From a candidate division FCPU426 bacterium (GTDB lineage Bacteria; Oederibacteriota; Muellerivitia; Muellerivitales; Muellerivitaceae), in contig CAVYSE010000024.1 in the NCBI GenBank assembly GCA_963771075.1, positions 1-64,000 on the forward strand: a stretch of 64,000 nt of DNA. Direction: 5' to 3'. The position numbers and the translations under genes are program-made. This document shows, piece after piece, positions 13,504 through 21,606 of the stretch (the stretch's first letter is position 1; each line of letters begins with the position of its first letter). Under the pieces are notes generated by a model. It saw nothing but the letters and a program-made list of their open reading frames with translations. It was not told where the DNA came from and searched no databases.

Positions 13504-13557
13504 CCGGTCGACTGAATGTCTTTTCCCGCCGGCCTTGCGTACCTTAAGGAAGGTTCC

Positions 13558-14241
13558 ATGAAACAAGTATTCATCGTTGAGGACGAAAAAGATCTGGTTG
13601 AATTATTGACTTACAATCTTGAAAAAGACGGGTATCGGGTCTTATCGGAAATGGATGGGGAGGCAGCCTTAAAGAAAATTCCCGAGAAAATGCCCGATTT
13701 GGTTCTGCTGGACCTGATGCTTCCCAAAACCGACGGACTTACCGTCTGTAAAACCCTGAAATCCAACCCCAAAACCTCCCATATTCCGGTGGTCATGCTG
13801 ACCGCCAAGGGTGAGGAGTCGGACAAGATCGTGGGTCTAGAGTTGGGGGCGGATGATTACATTACCAAACCCTTTTCCGTCAAGGAACTTTTGGCCCGGG
13901 TGAGGGCGGTTTTAAGGCGGTTCAGCAAGTCCCAGGAGGGGGAACCAATCCAGAAGTTCAAGGATCTTACCTTTAACCGAGCCAAGCACGAGGTGATTCT
14001 AAAAAACCAGAAACTCGACTTGACCGCCAAGGAGTTTGAACTCCTGGATTATTTTCTCACCCATTCGAGCCGGGTGCTTTCCCGCGATGTGCTGTTGAAC
14101 AATGTTTGGGGTTACGATTATTTCGGCACGACCCGGACGGTGGATGTCCATGTCAGGCGACTGCGCGAGAAACTGGGCGCCTATGATAAGCACATCCAGA
14201 CCGTGAAGGGTTATGGCTACCTATTCAAGGAAGAAATTTAG
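13558..14241 (+). CDS. phoB: OmpR/PhoB-family response regulator (PhoB/PhoP-like)
   Basis: VEDE, LLDLMLP, LTAKGEE, GADDYITKPFS, TRTVDVHVRRLREKL, TVKGYGY; AAGGAAGG RBS. Confidence 0.85.
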   Translation: MKQVFIVEDEKDLVELLTYNLEKDGYRVLSEMDGEAALKKIPEKMPDLVLLDLMLPKTDGLTVCKTLKSNPKTSHIPVVMLTAKGEESDKIVGLELGADDYITKPFSVKELLARVRAVLRRFSKSQEGEPIQKFKDLTFNRAKHEVILKNQKLDLTAKEFELLDYFLTHSSRVLSRDVLLNNVWGYDYFGTTRTVDVHVRRLREKLGAYDKHIQTVKGYGYLFKEEI

Positions 14242-14340
14242 ATCCTTCGTTTCCCACCTTTGGAATCCTATAAGGACCGTGAGACTTCCCCGCTTTATTA
14301 TTCTTGGAGTTTTTGCCTGGGGATGGCTTAAAATCCAGCT

Positions 14341-15642
14341 ATGAAAAATTCCAACCGTCCCTTTTGGATATTCCTTTTCCTAATCCTAATGGTATGGGCG
14401 TTTTTTGCTTGGATGAATGCCCTGATTTGGCAATCGGTTCTATTGATGGGTTTTGGCCTCCTTTCGGGATTTGGCCTGGCCCGCCTATTTCAGACTTCCA
14501 GGCCGACTGAGGATCCGCGTTCCCAACCATCTCCGGAAGTTCCGAAATCCTATGGGGATAGCTATCTCCCTGGTCGAAATTTTGAGGAAATGATCCGCCG
14601 TTTGGGCTCCAACGAGTCGATGCTCAACGTGATCCTCAAGAGCATGGGGGAGGGTGTGCTCCTTCTCAACCAAGCGGACCGCATCATCCTGATGAATCCC
14701 TCCGCCGAGAAGATCTTGGAAACCGTCGAGGAAAAAAACCTGGGCAAGCACTACCTGGAGGTGGTTCGGCATCCCCTCCTGGCCGATCTTTTGGCGGCAT
14801 CCAAGCGGGAAGGCCGGGCTGGAGGGGAGATCGAGTTCGGTGGCAGGGATGAGCGTTACTTCACGGTAAGCGTGGGCGCCATAAGGGTCGAGGGGGATTA
14901 CCTGTTGGGGCAAATTGTCGTTTTTTCAGATATAACCTCCCTCCGGCGCCTGATGCGCATGCGAACGGAGTTCGTGGCCAATGTCTCCCATGAATTGCGA
15001 ACGCCGTTGACGGCTATCCTGGGTTATGTGGAAACCCTTTTGGAGGGCGCCATCGACGACCGCAAGAATAGGGCGCAATTCCTCAAGAAGATTTCTGACC
15101 AGGCCAACCGCCTCAACGCGCTCATTACCGACGTGCTGGAACTCTCCAAGATCGAGAGCGGACTGTACATTACTGGTCTGGAACTGTTGAGACCCGCCGA
15201 GGTGGCCCAACAGGTTGTGGAACTCCTGAAGGCCAAATGGGAAGCCAAGGAAATGGTCATCCGGCAGGACATCCCGCCCCAAGTCCTGGTATTGGCCCAC
15301 CGAGAAGGGCTTTTTCACGTCTTGGAAAATCTGCTGGACAACGCGATCAAGTATTCCCCTTCCAAAACCGAGATTCGATTATCCGCCCAACCCTCCGAGG
15401 GGGACCGAATGGAAATAACGGTCGAGGACCAGGGGCCGGGAATCCCTCCGGAGGCCCAGCTTCGTGTATTTGAAAGGTTTTTCAGAGTGGATGTGTCCCG
15501 CAGCCGGGAGGCTGGCGGGACCGGCCTAGGGCTTTCCATCGTGAAGCATTTGGTGGAAAAGATGGACGGAGAAGTCCTTTTGAAAAGCACCGAGGGGAAG
15601 GGAAGCGCCTTCACGGTTCGGTTGCGAGCCAGGGAAACTTAG
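14341..15642 (+). CDS. phoR: PhoR-like sensor histidine kinase (2 TM, PAS, HisKA, HATPase)
   Basis: EFVANVSHELRTPLT, NLLDNAIKY, DQGPGI, FERFFRVD.SRSR..GGTGLGLSIVKH. Confidence 0.88.
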   Translation: MKNSNRPFWIFLFLILMVWAFFAWMNALIWQSVLLMGFGLLSGFGLARLFQTSRPTEDPRSQPSPEVPKSYGDSYLPGRNFEEMIRRLGSNESMLNVILKSMGEGVLLLNQADRIILMNPSAEKILETVEEKNLGKHYLEVVRHPLLADLLAASKREGRAGGEIEFGGRDERYFTVSVGAIRVEGDYLLGQIVVFSDITSLRRLMRMRTEFVANVSHELRTPLTAILGYVETLLEGAIDDRKNRAQFLKKISDQANRLNALITDVLELSKIESGLYITGLELLRPAEVAQQVVELLKAKWEAKEMVIRQDIPPQVLVLAHREGLFHVLENLLDNAIKYSPSKTEIRLSAQPSEGDRMEITVEDQGPGIPPEAQLRVFERFFRVDVSRSREAGGTGLGLSIVKHLVEKMDGEVLLKSTEGKGSAFTVRLRARET

Positions 15643-16062
15643 TACCGCTAACCAAACCTCAAACATTCATAACGAAAACTTTAAGATTGGTAAGAAAAGT
15701 ATTTTATAACTTCTTAAAGTCATTCATTCCCGATTTTAACTTTTTCGGGAATCCCATCCCCTTTCTGTAATCGAGGGAATGGTTCCGAAAAGCTACGCGC
15801 AATCTTATCCCTACCAATCGGTTTTCGGGTGTTTCGCTTTTAGATAGATCCCAATCGCAATCCTTTGAAAAAATTCTGACGAATTGTCAGATGTAATAGA
15901 ACGATGACTCCATTGGTAACAAATTGGGTAAGTTTTTACTTTTTTTGGGTGACTCGAATCGGTTTTAGAAGAGTTTTGTCGAAAGGATTTTCGGAACGGA
16001 AATTGCTGAATTTGAATGAAACAAGGGCCGAGAACCTGATCATTAAAAGGCATAACAATTTC

Positions 16063-17577
16063 ATGACAACGACAACCATCCTGCCGAGACTATCTCCTAA
16101 AAAAGGGCTCCACTTGAGCGTTTTCTTCGTTCTGGTGGGGCTGGCTTTTTTTTATTTTTGGCCGCGTGTTCACACCCATGGGTTCATTCCATTCGAAAAA
16201 AAAGACCTTCAATACCATGAGGGCTTAATGACCATTCCGGAATCAGAAAGACCTATGGATTTTGCCGTGATCGGCGTGGATTCGGATAAGTTCTCCTACT
16301 TCTCGCTTCCGGAATTGAAGCCCAACCCCTCGCTGCCGACAGCTTCCTATAACCGGGTGCGTGAAGAATTATATTGGCTGAATTTTGAACTGTGCCATGG
16401 GCGGGTGCTCAACGCACTACCCCCGCAAATAAAACTTTACGTTGCCTTACCCGATCCAAAACGCGTCCAGGATGCGACAGGACGGGAAGAAAAGTACTTT
16501 TTGGATTATGTGCGGTTGCGCTGTAACTGGACCCAAGACCGGATCGCGAGTCAAATACGCTTTTTCAAAAGCCCCGTTCCCCTGATCTGGGCCCAGGACA
16601 TCGGAAAAATCCTGGGACGGGACGATAGGGGCCGTTGGGTCGTTTTCCGGGGTTCCCAGGATATTCCCCTTTATCGTCAGGCCGTTTTGGATCTGTGCGC
16701 CGCCTATCCCGAACAATTCACCTTCCGGGATCTTCCCGACGGGGTTAGCGCCGAGGGTGGCGATGAGGACCTAGTACGAACTCCCGACGGCGACCAGGTG
16801 CTGATCGTGGGGAGGCACCGGGCTTTGAAACTCATGAATACCACCCGCACCCCCTCCACGGCAGCCGCCATGAGCCGGGATGAGATCGTACAAGACCAGA
16901 AAGAATTCTCGGCAGCCTTCGCGGGCCTGCCGGTTTGCCTCCTTCCGGCTGGCGCGCTCTTGGACCCATCCCTTGGCAATGACGAGCTTTTCCATCTCGA
17001 CATGTCAACGGCCGTGGTCGGAATGGCTCGAGAGGCCCAAGCCTTTGTGCCCACCTACCTCGCGAATCCCGTAGATCGAATTACGGGTCAGCCTTTGGAC
17101 GCGAATTTCGTCAAGAGTGTCCAGGGGGAGTTCGATCAGACCGCAGTGGAATTGGAGGGTTTGGGTTACAAGGTGGAGCGTCTTCCATTCGCGGACCATC
17201 CGGTGCGGAGCCCGGCCAATTTGGTACGTTTCTATGACCCGCAAAAAGGGAAATGCGTGGTTTTATTGGCGAAATACCCGGTCCATGACAATGAGGGGAA
17301 TGGGGGTGCCATCACTCCCCAGGTGGAATTGAAATCCAAATTGGACGCACTGCAATCTGCCTGCAAGGATTGGCAGGAAAAACCGGGGGAGATACCCTAT
17401 CAAGCCCTGATGGACGCCATCGCAAAAGTTTGGGCCGACATGGACGATACGGACAAGGAGTTCAACCCGGTTTTCAGCCAATGGGTCAAGACCTTCAACC
17501 GAGCGGGAATCGACGTCATACCCGTTTCCGACTTCGCATGGGGAGCGGGCGGCCTACATTGCCAAATGCTTCGGTAA
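16063..17577 (+). CDS. Membrane-anchored pentein-superfamily enzyme (peptidyl-arginine/agmatine deiminase-like)
   Basis: N-terminal TM helix; WAQD, AEGGD, FHLD and C-terminal GAGGLHC catalytic motifs. Confidence 0.7.
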   Translation: MTTTTILPRLSPKKGLHLSVFFVLVGLAFFYFWPRVHTHGFIPFEKKDLQYHEGLMTIPESERPMDFAVIGVDSDKFSYFSLPELKPNPSLPTASYNRVREELYWLNFELCHGRVLNALPPQIKLYVALPDPKRVQDATGREEKYFLDYVRLRCNWTQDRIASQIRFFKSPVPLIWAQDIGKILGRDDRGRWVVFRGSQDIPLYRQAVLDLCAAYPEQFTFRDLPDGVSAEGGDEDLVRTPDGDQVLIVGRHRALKLMNTTRTPSTAAAMSRDEIVQDQKEFSAAFAGLPVCLLPAGALLDPSLGNDELFHLDMSTAVVGMAREAQAFVPTYLANPVDRITGQPLDANFVKSVQGEFDQTAVELEGLGYKVERLPFADHPVRSPANLVRFYDPQKGKCVVLLAKYPVHDNEGNGGAITPQVELKSKLDALQSACKDWQEKPGEIPYQALMDAIAKVWADMDDTDKEFNPVFSQWVKTFNRAGIDVIPVSDFAWGAGGLHCQMLR

Positions 17578-17718: not shown

Positions 17719-18516
17719 TTAATTCTCTTCTCCTTTGTTCCCCGGTGCCAGGATGGCCCGGGCCGCTGCGTCCGCCTCGGATGTTTCGGAGGGGACCCCT
17801 TTTGAGATTCCCTTGAAGCGGTTAGACCGATCGGCCAGGATACGCTCCACCTTTTCCCGGATCTCCTTGTGGATTGACGCGGGCCTCCGGTTGCCTTGAA
17901 TAGTTGTGAATTTGTACTCTTTACCCAGGCCCTCAAAGACCTTGTGTAATTTGGTCTGGTACCGGATGAAGTTATCGTACATGCCACCCGCCCGTTGGAC
18001 GTCCATACCGGATTCCCAATAATCCAGAAGGCCGCTCTTGCTGAAATGCCTCTCCGCAAGGATCTTAGGAGTTACATTCAGATAAAAGACCGCGTCCGGT
18101 TCCAGGGCGAATCCGTATATTTCCTTCAGCCAATCCATGGAGGAGCCCCGGACGATATCCCGGGCCATGAGGGTATAGATATACCGGTCGGCCAGGACCA
18201 CAAAACCGGCCCTGAGGGCCGGGATCATCACCCTTTCCAGCTGATCGGCGAAATCGGTGGCATAAAACAAGTTCAAGGTGATGGCGTTCAGCGTGTTCCC
18301 CTGCATGGCCTCAGCCAGGGCCTCGCCCACCAGCTCACTGCGTTTGAGGCCCACGTTCACCGTCGGAAACCCCTTGCGCTCCAGCCAACTGGTCAAATAA
18401 CCCATCTGGGTGGAACGGCCCGATCCGTCCGATCCTTCGATGATGATCAAGGTGCCGTTCAGAAGGGCCGGGTCCACGCCGGGCAAACCCTTTCCGTAGA
18501 AACGTTTGTTTTTCAT
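17719..18516 (-). CDS. Thymidylate-kinase-fold protein with variant P-loop (candidate polyphosphate-kinase subunit)
   Basis: IEGSDGSGRST (Lys->Arg), FYATDFAD, LADRYIYT; 4-nt overlap with upstream paralog. Confidence 0.8.
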   Translation of the reverse strand: MKNKRFYGKGLPGVDPALLNGTLIIIEGSDGSGRSTQMGYLTSWLERKGFPTVNVGLKRSELVGEALAEAMQGNTLNAITLNLFYATDFADQLERVMIPALRAGFVVLADRYIYTLMARDIVRGSSMDWLKEIYGFALEPDAVFYLNVTPKILAERHFSKSGLLDYWESGMDVQRAGGMYDNFIRYQTKLHKVFEGLGKEYKFTTIQGNRRPASIHKEIREKVERILADRSNRFKGISKGVPSETSEADAAARAILAPGNKGEEN

Positions 18517-19208
18517 GGCTTCGCCTCTTTTCCCTTGAGCTTGTATTCCTTCAGGTTGATCTTGCGCCGCACGATTTCCCGCATGAGGGCCTGTTGCTCC
18601 TCCGAGGGGAGGGTGGCATCCACCCTCTCGAACGGGAATTCCTTCCCGATGCGGCCATATTCTTCGTAGATCTTGCCCTGGAAAATCTTGAATGATTCGT
18701 AAGGATCCTTGGAAAAACCCATATCCAATCCCGCCTCGTGGTATTTGAGCATAGGGCGCCCCTCCAAAATGCGCCCCAGCGCCACATCCAGGGGAACCTC
18801 AAAAAAGAAAGTGATATCGGGCTTCCGGGCGAAGCGGTATAGCTTCCTAAGCCAATCCCGGTCGCAGCCCCGCACCGCGTCCCGGGCAAAGGCGGTATAA
18901 ACATAGCGGTCCGCCAGGACCAGATAGCCGCCTTGAAGGAGGGGAAGGATTTGCCGCTCATAACGGTCGGCGAAATCGGTGCAATGGATCAGGGAAAAGG
19001 TCGTGGGGGTCAGCAGTTTTTTCTTTTTCCCTTTCCGGGTGGCTTTCTTGACTAAATCAGAGGAATTCCACTCGGTGAAAAAAACCTTGTAGCCTTCCAG
19101 CTCCAACCATCGTTTCAATAGCCGGATTTGGGTGGATTTGCCGGATCCGTCCAGACCTTCCACGGCAATTAGCTTGCCTCGGATTTCATTGCTTGGTTTT
19201 TTCGCCAT
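18513..19208 (-). CDS. Thymidylate-kinase-fold protein with canonical P-loop (candidate polyphosphate-kinase subunit)
   Basis: VEGLDGSGKST, TEWNSS, basic patch KKATRKGKKKK, HCTDFADR, LADRYVYT. Confidence 0.82.
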   Translation of the reverse strand: MAKKPSNEIRGKLIAVEGLDGSGKSTQIRLLKRWLELEGYKVFFTEWNSSDLVKKATRKGKKKKLLTPTTFSLIHCTDFADRYERQILPLLQGGYLVLADRYVYTAFARDAVRGCDRDWLRKLYRFARKPDITFFFEVPLDVALGRILEGRPMLKYHEAGLDMGFSKDPYESFKIFQGKIYEEYGRIGKEFPFERVDATLPSEEQQALMREIVRRKINLKEYKLKGKEAKP

Positions 19209-19296
19209 GGGTGTCGTCTCCTCTCAATTCCACAAATACCCCACTCCTTTAAGGAACGGGACGAATGAAAATTTCCCCTCTCGAACGGCTCCGGTG

Positions 19297-20823
19297 TTAA
19301 GCCCTGGACTCCTTGCTTCCCACGATTAAACGTGTTCGAAACACCTTCTCAAAAAGGTCCCTTTTTCGAAGGAGGGCCCAGCGCTCCAGCAACAAGTCGC
19401 CCTGGCCCTTGAGCTTTAGTAAAAATGTTTTTCCCTTTCTCACCAGGGTGAAACCCGAGACTTTGGAGGAGTGCTCATGATCCATCGCGTCCGCGAGCCG
19501 CAGGAGGGCCGCTAGCTTACTGACCACCTGGCGTTGGGCGGGCGTCAGGGCGCGGAAATTCTCATGATCCATTTTGGGACAGGCCTTTCGATGGTAACGC
19601 GCCACATTGGCGATGATCTCGACCTGGTCGTTGTGAAGGCCCACCAATTGGGTGGCTTTGATGAGATAATAGGAATGTTTGTGGTGGGAACCGTAATTCA
19701 CGAACTGGCCGATATCATGAAGCTGGGCCGCCACCTCCAAAAGCAACCGTTGATCATCCCCCAAACGGTGGAGGGGCTTGGTTTCCTCGAAAAGCTCCAG
19801 GGCCAGTTTGGTCACGGCGATGGCGTGTGCCTCGTCGTAGGCGTACTTCAAACCCACCTGCTTGAGGGCGCCGACCACTTCCTGGCGGTGAAGGGGGCGT
19901 TTGCCTGTCAACAACTCGGTGACCATCTCGATGAGAAGACCTTCCTTGACGCCTACGTTGGGAATATAGATTCGGCTCATTTTTCCCACTTCCATCACCT
20001 TTTGGAGCACCGTGGCCGCGGGTAGGATCACATCCGCCCGGTCGGGCCTTAGGCCCAGGCGGGTCACCCTTTCTTCATAGGTAAGGGCCTGGATACGGGC
20101 TAGGATGGAACGAAGTTCCCCCAGGGTCACGAAAAGAGAACTGGGTTTATGCAGGATCTGGCTTTTCAGAGAAAGCAGGGCATCCAGGTTGCCGCCGGTA
20201 CCGGCGCAGATATTGATGCGCTGGCCCGCCAGCTTTTGGTTGAAACGCTTGCTAGCCGATTCGACATATTCTTGGACCATTTGGTTGAACCGTTTTTCCC
20301 CAACCTTTTTTTGCTCCAAGACCTGCAGAAGTCGTACCGCACCCATCTTGAAACTATCGGTCGCGAGGATCTTGTTCTCCCGGGCCAAGGTTAGTTCCAC
20401 GCTTCCCCCGCCGATGTCGATGAGCATGGCGGTCTTGTTATGCAGGGGGATCTTCTGGGACACGGCCAGGTAGACCAGGAGGGCCTCCTCCTCGCCCGTG
20501 ATCGGCCTCAGGTCGATACCGGTGGCTTCCAAGATCTGCGCCACGAACTCGTCCCGATTGCGGGCTTCCCGGACCGCGCTGGTCGCTACCGCCCGGGTAA
20601 TAACCACTTGGTGCTGGTGGATGAGGTCCTTGAACCGCAGGAAAGCTTCGACGGCTTTTTGTATGGTTTCCTTTGAAATAACTCCCAGGGTGAATACGTC
20701 CTGGCCCAAACGGACGGGTTCCCGCATATCCTCAACCAGGTGAAGTTTTTTGTTGTGGTCGAGGAAACCAATGGCCAATCGCATGGCGTTGGATCCAACA
20801 TCAATGGAGCAAAGGTTAGGCAT
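19297..20823 (-). CDS. ppx: Ppx/GppA exopolyphosphatase with C-terminal HD domain
   Basis: IDVGSNAMRL, VRLG, ATSAVREA, GEEEA, DIGGGSVE, GAVRL, RADVI, LHDIG, ARYHRK, LLRLADAMD. Confidence 0.92.
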   Translation of the reverse strand: MPNLCSIDVGSNAMRLAIGFLDHNKKLHLVEDMREPVRLGQDVFTLGVISKETIQKAVEAFLRFKDLIHQHQVVITRAVATSAVREARNRDEFVAQILEATGIDLRPITGEEEALLVYLAVSQKIPLHNKTAMLIDIGGGSVELTLARENKILATDSFKMGAVRLLQVLEQKKVGEKRFNQMVQEYVESASKRFNQKLAGQRINICAGTGGNLDALLSLKSQILHKPSSLFVTLGELRSILARIQALTYEERVTRLGLRPDRADVILPAATVLQKVMEVGKMSRIYIPNVGVKEGLLIEMVTELLTGKRPLHRQEVVGALKQVGLKYAYDEAHAIAVTKLALELFEETKPLHRLGDDQRLLLEVAAQLHDIGQFVNYGSHHKHSYYLIKATQLVGLHNDQVEIIANVARYHRKACPKMDHENFRALTPAQRQVVSKLAALLRLADAMDHEHSSKVSGFTLVRKGKTFLLKLKGQGDLLLERWALLRKRDLFEKVFRTRLIVGSKESRA

Positions 20824-21057
20824 GGAACCTCTTAAAGGCGAAGGGTTTCAAGTTCAGGGCGTCCAGGGGACCGACTCCGGTCCCTCGGATATGTCCCGGC
20901 CGCCGAATGGCCTGGAAAAAGGCATATTATAGGGTTTGAAAGGATTTTTGGGAGGCATTCGGGGCAGGGGGACCAAGTTTCGGCCTTTTTTATGTGAATT
21001 TTACATATATGAAATGTTCAAAGCGTACCCTTTGACCCATCGAAGGGGGATTGCACG

Positions 21058-21606
21058 ATGATGCAAAATTTAATCCAAACGGCCCAACAATGGGACACGA
21101 AGGTTTTCGGACTCATCTTCGGGGATTCCGATGGTAAGCCCTTGAAGCGGTTCTTCTTCCACCTATCCCATACGGCGGATGCTTTCCCTTGTTTGCTGAT
21201 GGGGATCACCTGGCTAATTCTTCAACCAGCCCAATGGGCATATGTTTTGACCGCCACCTCGGCTTTTGTTTTGGAGCTTTCACTTTACTACCTGATCAAA
21301 AAAAATATCCGCCGTCCCCGTCCTTTCAAACACCTGAAGGGAGTCCGTGCGCTGATTGTTCCCCCCGACGAGTTCAGCTTTCCTTCCGGCCATACCGCAG
21401 CGTCTTTTTTGATGGCCATCATCATGAGCGCGGCACTTCCCTCGTTATCCCCTTGGTTATTCGCTTGGGCTGTTTTGGTGGGGCTTTCGAGGATTTACCT
21501 GGGAGTGCATTACCCGGGTGATGTATTGGCGGGCGTGGCTTTGGGCGTGATCAGCGCCAATACCAGTCTTTGGGCCATGGACCTTTTCCTGAAGACGAGT
21601 CTCTAA
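21058..21606 (+). CDS. PAP2-family membrane phosphatase
   Basis: K…RPRP, SFPSGH, SRIYLGVHYPGDV. Confidence 0.9.
   Translation: MMQNLIQTAQQWDTKVFGLIFGDSDGKPLKRFFFHLSHTADAFPCLLMGITWLILQPAQWAYVLTATSAFVLELSLYYLIKKNIRRPRPFKHLKGVRALIVPPDEFSFPSGHTAASFLMAIIMSAALPSLSPWLFAWAVLVGLSRIYLGVHYPGDVLAGVALGVISANTSLWAMDLFLKTSL

Follow-up and report, generated by a model that had tools for sequence, protein, structure and literature searches.

Why does a bacterium carry two overlapping genes that databases label as dTMP kinases directly behind a gene for an exopolyphosphatase? The question is raised by a 64,000-nucleotide stretch of contig CAVYSE010000024.1 (assembly GCA_963771075.1, a candidate division FCPU426 bacterium; this whole stretch is called the window below), in which three minus-strand open reading frames (ORFs) lie in tandem: ppx (P0003), then P0001, then P0002. 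A preliminary description had read the latter two as a mis-annotated catalytic and regulatory polyphosphate (polyP) kinase. Sequence, fold, tree, gene order, and the presence of a separate thymidylate kinase gene (tmk) support that proposal, and we consider it very probable that P0001 and P0002 are the catalytic (c) and helper (r) subunits of a family-3 polyphosphate kinase (PPK3). The locus has the following features.

19297..20823, minus strand: ppx/gppA-family exopolyphosphatase, long form with an HD-like domain III (P0003, 508 amino acids), first gene of the run
18513..19208, minus strand: cPPK3, predicted catalytic subunit (P0001, 231 amino acids), by its 2plr/5h70 match and its place in the c clade of the tree
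19131..19157, minus strand: Walker A motif GLDGSGKST of cPPK3 (residues 18-26 of P0001), from the sequence, with Lys in 77/77 related c subunits
19017..19049, minus strand: basic helix KKATRKGKKKK (residues 54-64 of P0001), from the sequence, part of the predicted polyP cleft
17719..18516, minus strand: rPPK3, predicted helper/regulatory subunit (P0002, 265 amino acids), by its 2plr match (E 4.7e-43) and its place in the r clade of the tree
18513..18516, minus strand: ATGA stop/start overlap of P0001 and P0002, 4 nt, from the sequence
18409..18435, minus strand: Walker A motif of rPPK3 with Lys-to-Arg, GSDGSGRST (residues 28-36 of P0002), with Arg in 80/80 related r subunits
18181..18189, minus strand: DRY motif of rPPK3 with the arginine kept (D110-R111-Y112 of P0002), with Arg in 80/80 related r subunits

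The ORF coordinates bear out the gene order, common strand, and 4-nt overlap first described, and the three motifs GLDGSGKST, KKATRKGKKKK, and GSDGSGRST stand where listed. The spacing between ppx and P0001 is 88 nt. A polyP gene thus lies directly upstream of the pair, as is typical of PPK3 loci (ppx, sixA, CHAD, or pst nearby). The ATGA overlap likely reflects translational coupling of P0001 and P0002. P0003 matches PF02541 (Ppx-GppA, E 7.6e-50) and PF21447 (domain III/HD, E 7.4e-29); its best NCBIfam match, TIGR03706, is below the cut-off, and no equivalog cut-off is passed. Both P0001 and P0002 match the Pfam family Thymidylate_kin, share 36% identity over 218 amino acids, and give no match to PF03976, the PPK2 profile. 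A scan for promoters and terminators returned chance-level results only, and no Pho box was found upstream of ppx near 20823-21058 (10 matches in the window vs 7.5 expected, for a consensus with at most 3 mismatches).

The two-subunit Sulfolobus enzyme mentioned in the preliminary description is indeed published: SaPPK3 of Sulfolobus acidocaldarius consists of Saci_2019 (cPPK3) and Saci_2020 (rPPK3) (PMC12995831, J Biol Chem 2026; preprint 10.1101/2024.08.28.610084; statements drawn from either source refer to the parts of it covered here). According to PMC12995831, Saci_2019 makes and uses polyP, favoring ATP formation from polyP and ADP, also accepts GDP, and yields no dTDP; Saci_2020 is inactive alone but, at a 1:1 ratio and in a 2+2 complex, it raises the activity of Saci_2019 6- to 10-fold. 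All predicted PPK3 operons but one carry genes for c and r, and PPK3 is present in a few bacteria, the inferred source of the archaeal enzyme (PMC12995831). The PPK3 assignment therefore stands but its novelty does not, since PPK3, bacterial members included, is already in print and the published concept is unchanged. In Data S1 of the same paper, PPK3 is scored 0 in 33/33 matching rows among those listed (31,788 of 47,545; Verrucomicrobiota not among them).

Structure comparisons tie both proteins to this enzyme. The best match of P0001 is the structure of S. tokodaii cPPK3 (2plr/5h70), at E 1.7e-64, with the next Tmk at 1.3e-16; P0002 matches 2plr at E 4.7e-43. When predicted models were searched with Foldseek, the S. 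tokodaii structure came first for P0001 (mean predicted local distance difference test score, pLDDT, 87; 52% identity, root-mean-square deviation 1.4, TM-score 0.86/0.95), and it also ranked first for P0002 (mean pLDDT 83), which is only 37% identical to it. The protein concerned, STK_15430 (PDB 2plr, 4nzy, 4rzx, 5h70), was deposited as a dTMP kinase, solved without its helper, and later reinterpreted as cPPK3; P0001 has the motifs TEWNSS, TFSLIH.TDF, and DRYER in common with it.

Phylogeny, proposed at the outset as a check, separates the pair from true Tmk. The archaeal reference rows were L134 and L135, metagenome loci from a motif scan with the order sixA-ppx-c-r-CHAD, which we take to be Sulfolobales-type from this gene order and their likeness to 2plr; a metagenome scan with P0386 gave no match. 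Of 150 representatives, the 72 segments that spanned 170 or more profile positions were used. In a quick tree of 133 rows, P0001 groups with the L134/L135 c subunits in a c clade of 37 rows (Shimodaira-Hasegawa-like approximate likelihood ratio test, SH-aLRT, 97) and P0002 with the L134/L135 r subunits in a clade of 42 rows (SH-aLRT 98), while seven representative rows were placed outside their profile-score label. A careful tree of 65 of those rows set Tmk apart with support of 100/100 and gave 93/61 for c and 61/93 for r, its Tmk rows coming from this phylum only and other Tmk-like paralogue families lying outside the sample. P0001 and P0002 are accordingly adjacent Tmk-fold paralogues in c and r branches of a clade apart from canonical dTMP kinase, two traits of PPK3. 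A recent duplication giving rise to both proteins was rejected (approximately unbiased test of the sister placement, p-AU 2e-38).

Residues were compared in 77 c and 80 r subunits from 80 loci, three c subunits being omitted as partial, absent, or without a P-loop. All 77 c subunits keep the Walker A Lys, W47-N48, K61, H75, R82, R85, and K155. K62 is kept in 70/77, both K61 and K62 are Lys in the L134/L135 c subunits, and the conserved basic core of c subunits comprises K61, K62, R82, R85, R109, R113, and K155. P0001 stands at the family extreme in its basic patch, with 8 Lys or Arg in 17 residues; the median net charge is +3 over the 77 relatives. By analogy with the docking in PMC12995831, the KKATRKGKKKK helix may line the polyP cleft. 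P0001 and the L134/L135 c subunits have a common signature (TEWNSS, H75, R82, K155), and the c-subunit site residues examined are identical to those of Sulfolobales-type c subunits.

The traits of canonical Tmk (EP motif, dTMP pocket, grouping with housekeeping Tmk) were found in neither protein. In one alignment, the EP motif occurs in 19/19 Tmk, 0/77 c, and 0/80 r; its position reads TEWNSS in P0001 and VGLKRS in P0002, consistent with the missing TREPG first noted, and dTMP-binding columns are absent from both. The pair thus resembles canonical Tmk (PF02223/TIGR00041) in fold, P-loop, DRx motif, and dimer helix but differs in its identity of about 30% or less, its lack of the EP motif and dTMP pocket, and its separate branch. 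PPK2 (PF03976, including the two-domain class II with an inactive domain) is, as predicted for the pair, a polyP-using P-loop kinase with active and inactive modules; unlike PPK2, P0001 and P0002 give no PF03976 match, and PMC12995831 puts PPK2 outside the dTMPK superfamily.

P0002 differs from P0001 at the c signature sites. In 80/80 r subunits, Arg, GL, Tyr, Gln, and Asp occupy the sites matching the c signature residues, and a signature of GLxxS, Y, Q, and D is common to P0002 and the L134/L135 r subunits. By alignment only, K61/K62/R82/K155 of P0001 become M/Q/Q/D in P0002, and the median net charge at the basic-cleft region is -2 for r vs +3 for c. The last ~30 amino acids of P0002 form a low-confidence tail (pLDDT <50) that is also present in a 91%-identical relative.

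The arginine of the DRx motif is where P0002 departs from the published helper. PMC12995831 ascribes the inactivity of the archaeal helper to loss of this arginine, and both Sulfolobales-type helpers L134/L135 have Gly there (DGY), whereas P0002 keeps it, as do 43/45 distant r-like representatives. The P-loop Asp and three further arginines are likewise kept in most of the close and distant r-like sequences. We take the loss to be a Sulfolobales trait that does not define the family, because the legend in PMC12995831 names only Saci_2020 and STK_15420; since bacterial helpers keep the arginine, the published cause of inactivity does not carry over to them. DGY looks derived, given the long stem (1.67) that leads to the Sulfolobales-type helpers. 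From the sequence we infer that P0002 would be inactive through the Walker A Lys-to-Arg change plus loss of the basic cleft, not through loss of the DRx Arg. The Walker A Arg recurs in 31/45 distant r-like representatives and in the L134 helper, not in the L135 helper. A literature search on this Lys-to-Arg change in the present context found no paper; "Walker A" is not named in the main text of PMC12995831, and the legend of its Fig. S14 boxes the motif.

The gene arrangement is also conserved, as the proposed synteny survey brought out. In 79/80 loci the P0002 match is immediately preceded by a P0001-like gene, the 80th locus beginning 220 nt before the match, and with such retention the c-r adjacency is not chance. 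ppx falls within the locus in 32/80 (11 directly upstream, 20 downstream, 1 distant), a count made on loci many of which are cut by contig ends. The ppx-c-r order is kept in 15/15 relatives' regions, which were chosen for having the pair, and the 4-nt c/r overlap is seen in most of them. An r-profile match was obtained in 26/30 same-family genomes and in 36/99 genomes of the phylum, including the source genome (G000); GTDB genomes hold at least 586 confirmed stretches, which may include c subunits. Viral contigs yielded no relative among 45 pattern matches, and among plasmids the best 25 of 33 records were all weak Tmk-level matches, none covering 80%. In G005 (L123, G005:C86), c is split or frameshifted and r is whole; a frameshift tally of 3/28 matched stretches includes wrong-frame ORFs and so is not a rate. 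The records L045 and L077 are titled Klebsiella and Bifidobacteriaceae, with the same query identity (55-57%) as the surrounding Verrucomicrobiota records, and are possibly mislabelled bins.

Does the genome have a separate kinase for dTMP? A canonical tmk, another PPK3 trait, lies on a different contig (C23:28100-28672), in three pieces with two frameshifts as assembled. Both breaks fall in homopolymer runs. In short-read contigs from near-identical strains, the first break is missing from sequencing runs X2 and X3 and the second from X3 (a single study at a depth of about 3; 4/14 listed runs covered). Full-length tmk occurs in 12/15 family relatives, with the same-genus G002 and G003 copies whole, and is partial in one; the two relatives with no match are genomes 80-86% complete. 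The tmk frameshifts look like assembly errors, and on that ground the pair was rejected as a substitute for a defunct tmk. The outcome named at the start as one that would refute a polyP kinase, a pair that clusters with canonical Tmk and supplies the only tmk, was not borne out, given the separate branch and the gene on C23. The companion expectation, a separate tmk and no ppk1 or ppk2, held for tmk and for PPK1, which was found neither in G000 (96.7% complete) nor in any of 15 family relatives (1/26 genomes overall), and failed for PPK2.

Frameshifts occur in tmk and its upstream gene (C23:26732-28672) and in one PPK2 copy (C15:8378-9057), and short-read contigs differ from the assembly in indels at five places of L003. 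The G000 assembly probably has indel errors, and its broken genes therefore need care.

A complex model of two P0001 (8-224) and two P0002 (1-232) chains scored 0.70, and the best control scored 0.00; the 0.70 mark is reached by 116/157 solved complexes and 2/215 mismatched pairs. Contacts agree to at least 94% between runs, partner pLDDT is at least 85, and the tightest modelled contacts join c helix 69-81 with r helix 79-91. In the preprint 10.1101/2024.08.28.610084, c and r are oriented as the two subunits of a Tmk homodimer. The model supports binding of P0001 to P0002, possibly through this likeness. Overall, the locus is like SaPPK3 in its ppx-c-r order, pair of Tmk-fold paralogues that lack the EP motif, basic cleft in c only, separate canonical tmk, undetected PPK1, and predicted 2+2 complex; it is unlike SaPPK3 in its bacterial host, its helper with DRx Arg, N-terminal extension, and C-terminal tail, its lack of adjacent sixA or CHAD, its PPK2, and the nearby phoB/phoR-like pair.

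By analogy with the Sulfolobus enzyme, P0001 would bind ADP/ATP at its P-loop and polyP in the basic cleft and move phosphate between them, in a reversible reaction expected to favor ATP from polyP and ADP. P0002 would be the non-catalytic partner, forming the core of a 2+2 tetramer and activating P0001, perhaps 6- to 10-fold at a 1:1 stoichiometry, amounts that coupled translation would supply. Ppx of the same run would degrade polyP. With PPK1 undetected, the best candidate for making polyP when ATP/ADP is high is PPK3, next to a PPK2.

Several observations weigh against assignment to PPK3. One PPK2 copy in the genome is intact (it passes NF042973 and TIGR03709) and another is frameshifted, PPK2 occurs in 12/15 family relatives, and most PPK3 genomes are without PPK1 and PPK2 according to PMC12995831, where this is a tendency, not a rule. 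P0001 scores 85.8 against the NCBIfam dTMP kinase model TIGR00041, just above the cut-off of 83.25 (P0002 is below it). Neither sixA nor CHAD is adjacent, and PF05235 and tblastn with the L134/L135 proteins gave no match; the CHAD profile was silent in the S. acidocaldarius control too, so a divergent CHAD could escape. The r clade has a weak bootstrap (61), owing to the long branch of the Sulfolobales-type r subunits, and the archaeal tree references are the L134/L135 pairs, not the Saci_2019/Saci_2020 sequences. The modelled interface uses the Tmk homodimer helices, so the complex score may reflect likeness to solved homodimers, and the controls did not include a c-c homodimer. In the literature covered, no measured activity of any bacterial PPK3 member was found.

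The alternative that survives best modifies the PPK3 assignment and keeps the same enzyme: P0002 may not be a dead helper but may bind nucleotide, as an allosteric ATP/ADP or alarmone sensor, or catalyze its own reaction, the inert Sulfolobus helper being a derived state. We regard this as possible, if doubtful. It would account for the retention, in 80/80 P0002-type subunits, of the P-loop Asp, the DRx Arg, and three arginines aligned to P0001 R109/R113/R146, and for the long stem of the Sulfolobales-type helpers, which lack both the DRx Arg and R109. These 80 loci are, however, close kin, mostly Verrucomicrobiota, and not independent; the basic cleft is gone, and the Walker A Lys-to-Arg change is invariant. 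A Lys-to-Arg change at this position usually cripples phosphoryl transfer. Cys at the Walker A lysine position in 9/45 distant r-like proteins (P0260, P0288, P0290, P0292, P0296, P0310, P0330, P0343, P0389) also suggests relaxed constraint. More speculatively still, the bacterial-type helper, with its DRx Arg, most of the nucleotide site, and a Walker A Arg, might be the common and probably ancestral form, a nucleotide-sensing pseudokinase that tunes polyP synthesis vs use to energy or phosphate status; the inert Sulfolobus helper would then be a degenerate exception, and whole families of uncultured bacteria would use PPK3 in place of PPK1.

It is improbable that the pair is a PPK3-clade heteromer with another acceptor or role, such as a preference for GDP or AMP or (p)ppGpp-related turnover with the Ppx/GppA neighbor. 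That the long Ppx/GppA protein passes no equivalog cut-off, that PPK2 already covers polyP-to-nucleotide transfer, and that the Sulfolobus enzyme accepts GDP too (PMC12995831) would fit; the c-site residues are nevertheless those of Sulfolobales-type c subunits, and no positive evidence points to another substrate. Least credible, and in our view very improbable, is a pair of dTMP or other nucleoside-monophosphate kinases using ATP with no polyP link: the Pfam and TIGR00041 matches, the database labels, the frameshifted tmk, and the first report of the S. tokodaii protein as a dTMP kinase speak for it, but both proteins lack the EP motif and the dTMP-binding columns, the S. tokodaii assay tracked ADP only (10.1101/2024.08.28.610084), Saci_2019 yields no dTDP, and the homopolymer frameshifts are absent from contigs of near-identical strains, with tmk whole in G002 and G003.

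Identification of P0001 and P0002 as PPK3 would correct a common mis-annotation, in which such genes are taken for two additional "dTMP kinases", and it suggests a way in which a bacterial family that lacks PPK1 may form and consume polyP. PPK3 looks commoner in uncultured bacteria than "a few", judging by the at least 586 stretches and the 26/30 family genomes. The pair also offers a PPK3, probably mesophilic, for use in assays or to regenerate ATP.

Fused forms were seen as well: 460-amino-acid c-r fusions (P0243, P0407, P0408), labelled as coming from Alicyclobacillaceae, have a degenerate second P-loop, and longer two-domain forms (P0248, P0264, P0286) span 650-696 amino acids. PMC12995831 speaks of just one possible fusion.

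Among neighboring genes in the window, a plus-strand response regulator and sensor kinase (13516-15642) have PhoB and PnpS/PhoR as best NCBIfam matches, below cut-off, and in 12/15 relatives' regions the kinase gene is found downstream of the PPK3 pair at a distance of up to about 4 kb, which hints at a phosphate-regulation cluster. A plus-strand ORF of 557 amino acids (15904-17577) gave no Pfam, NCBIfam, or PDB match and occurs, among the 15 relatives' regions, only in the 3 same-genus ones. It carries the motifs GGDE, HLD, and a C-terminal GGLHC, which we take to be typical of pentein (amidinotransferase/deiminase) enzymes; an Atlas neighbor at 0.89 with PF04371 in 47% of members is a lead only. 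Divergent from ppx, a plus-strand PAP2-family phosphatase gene (21058-21606) is kept in 11/15 relatives' regions.

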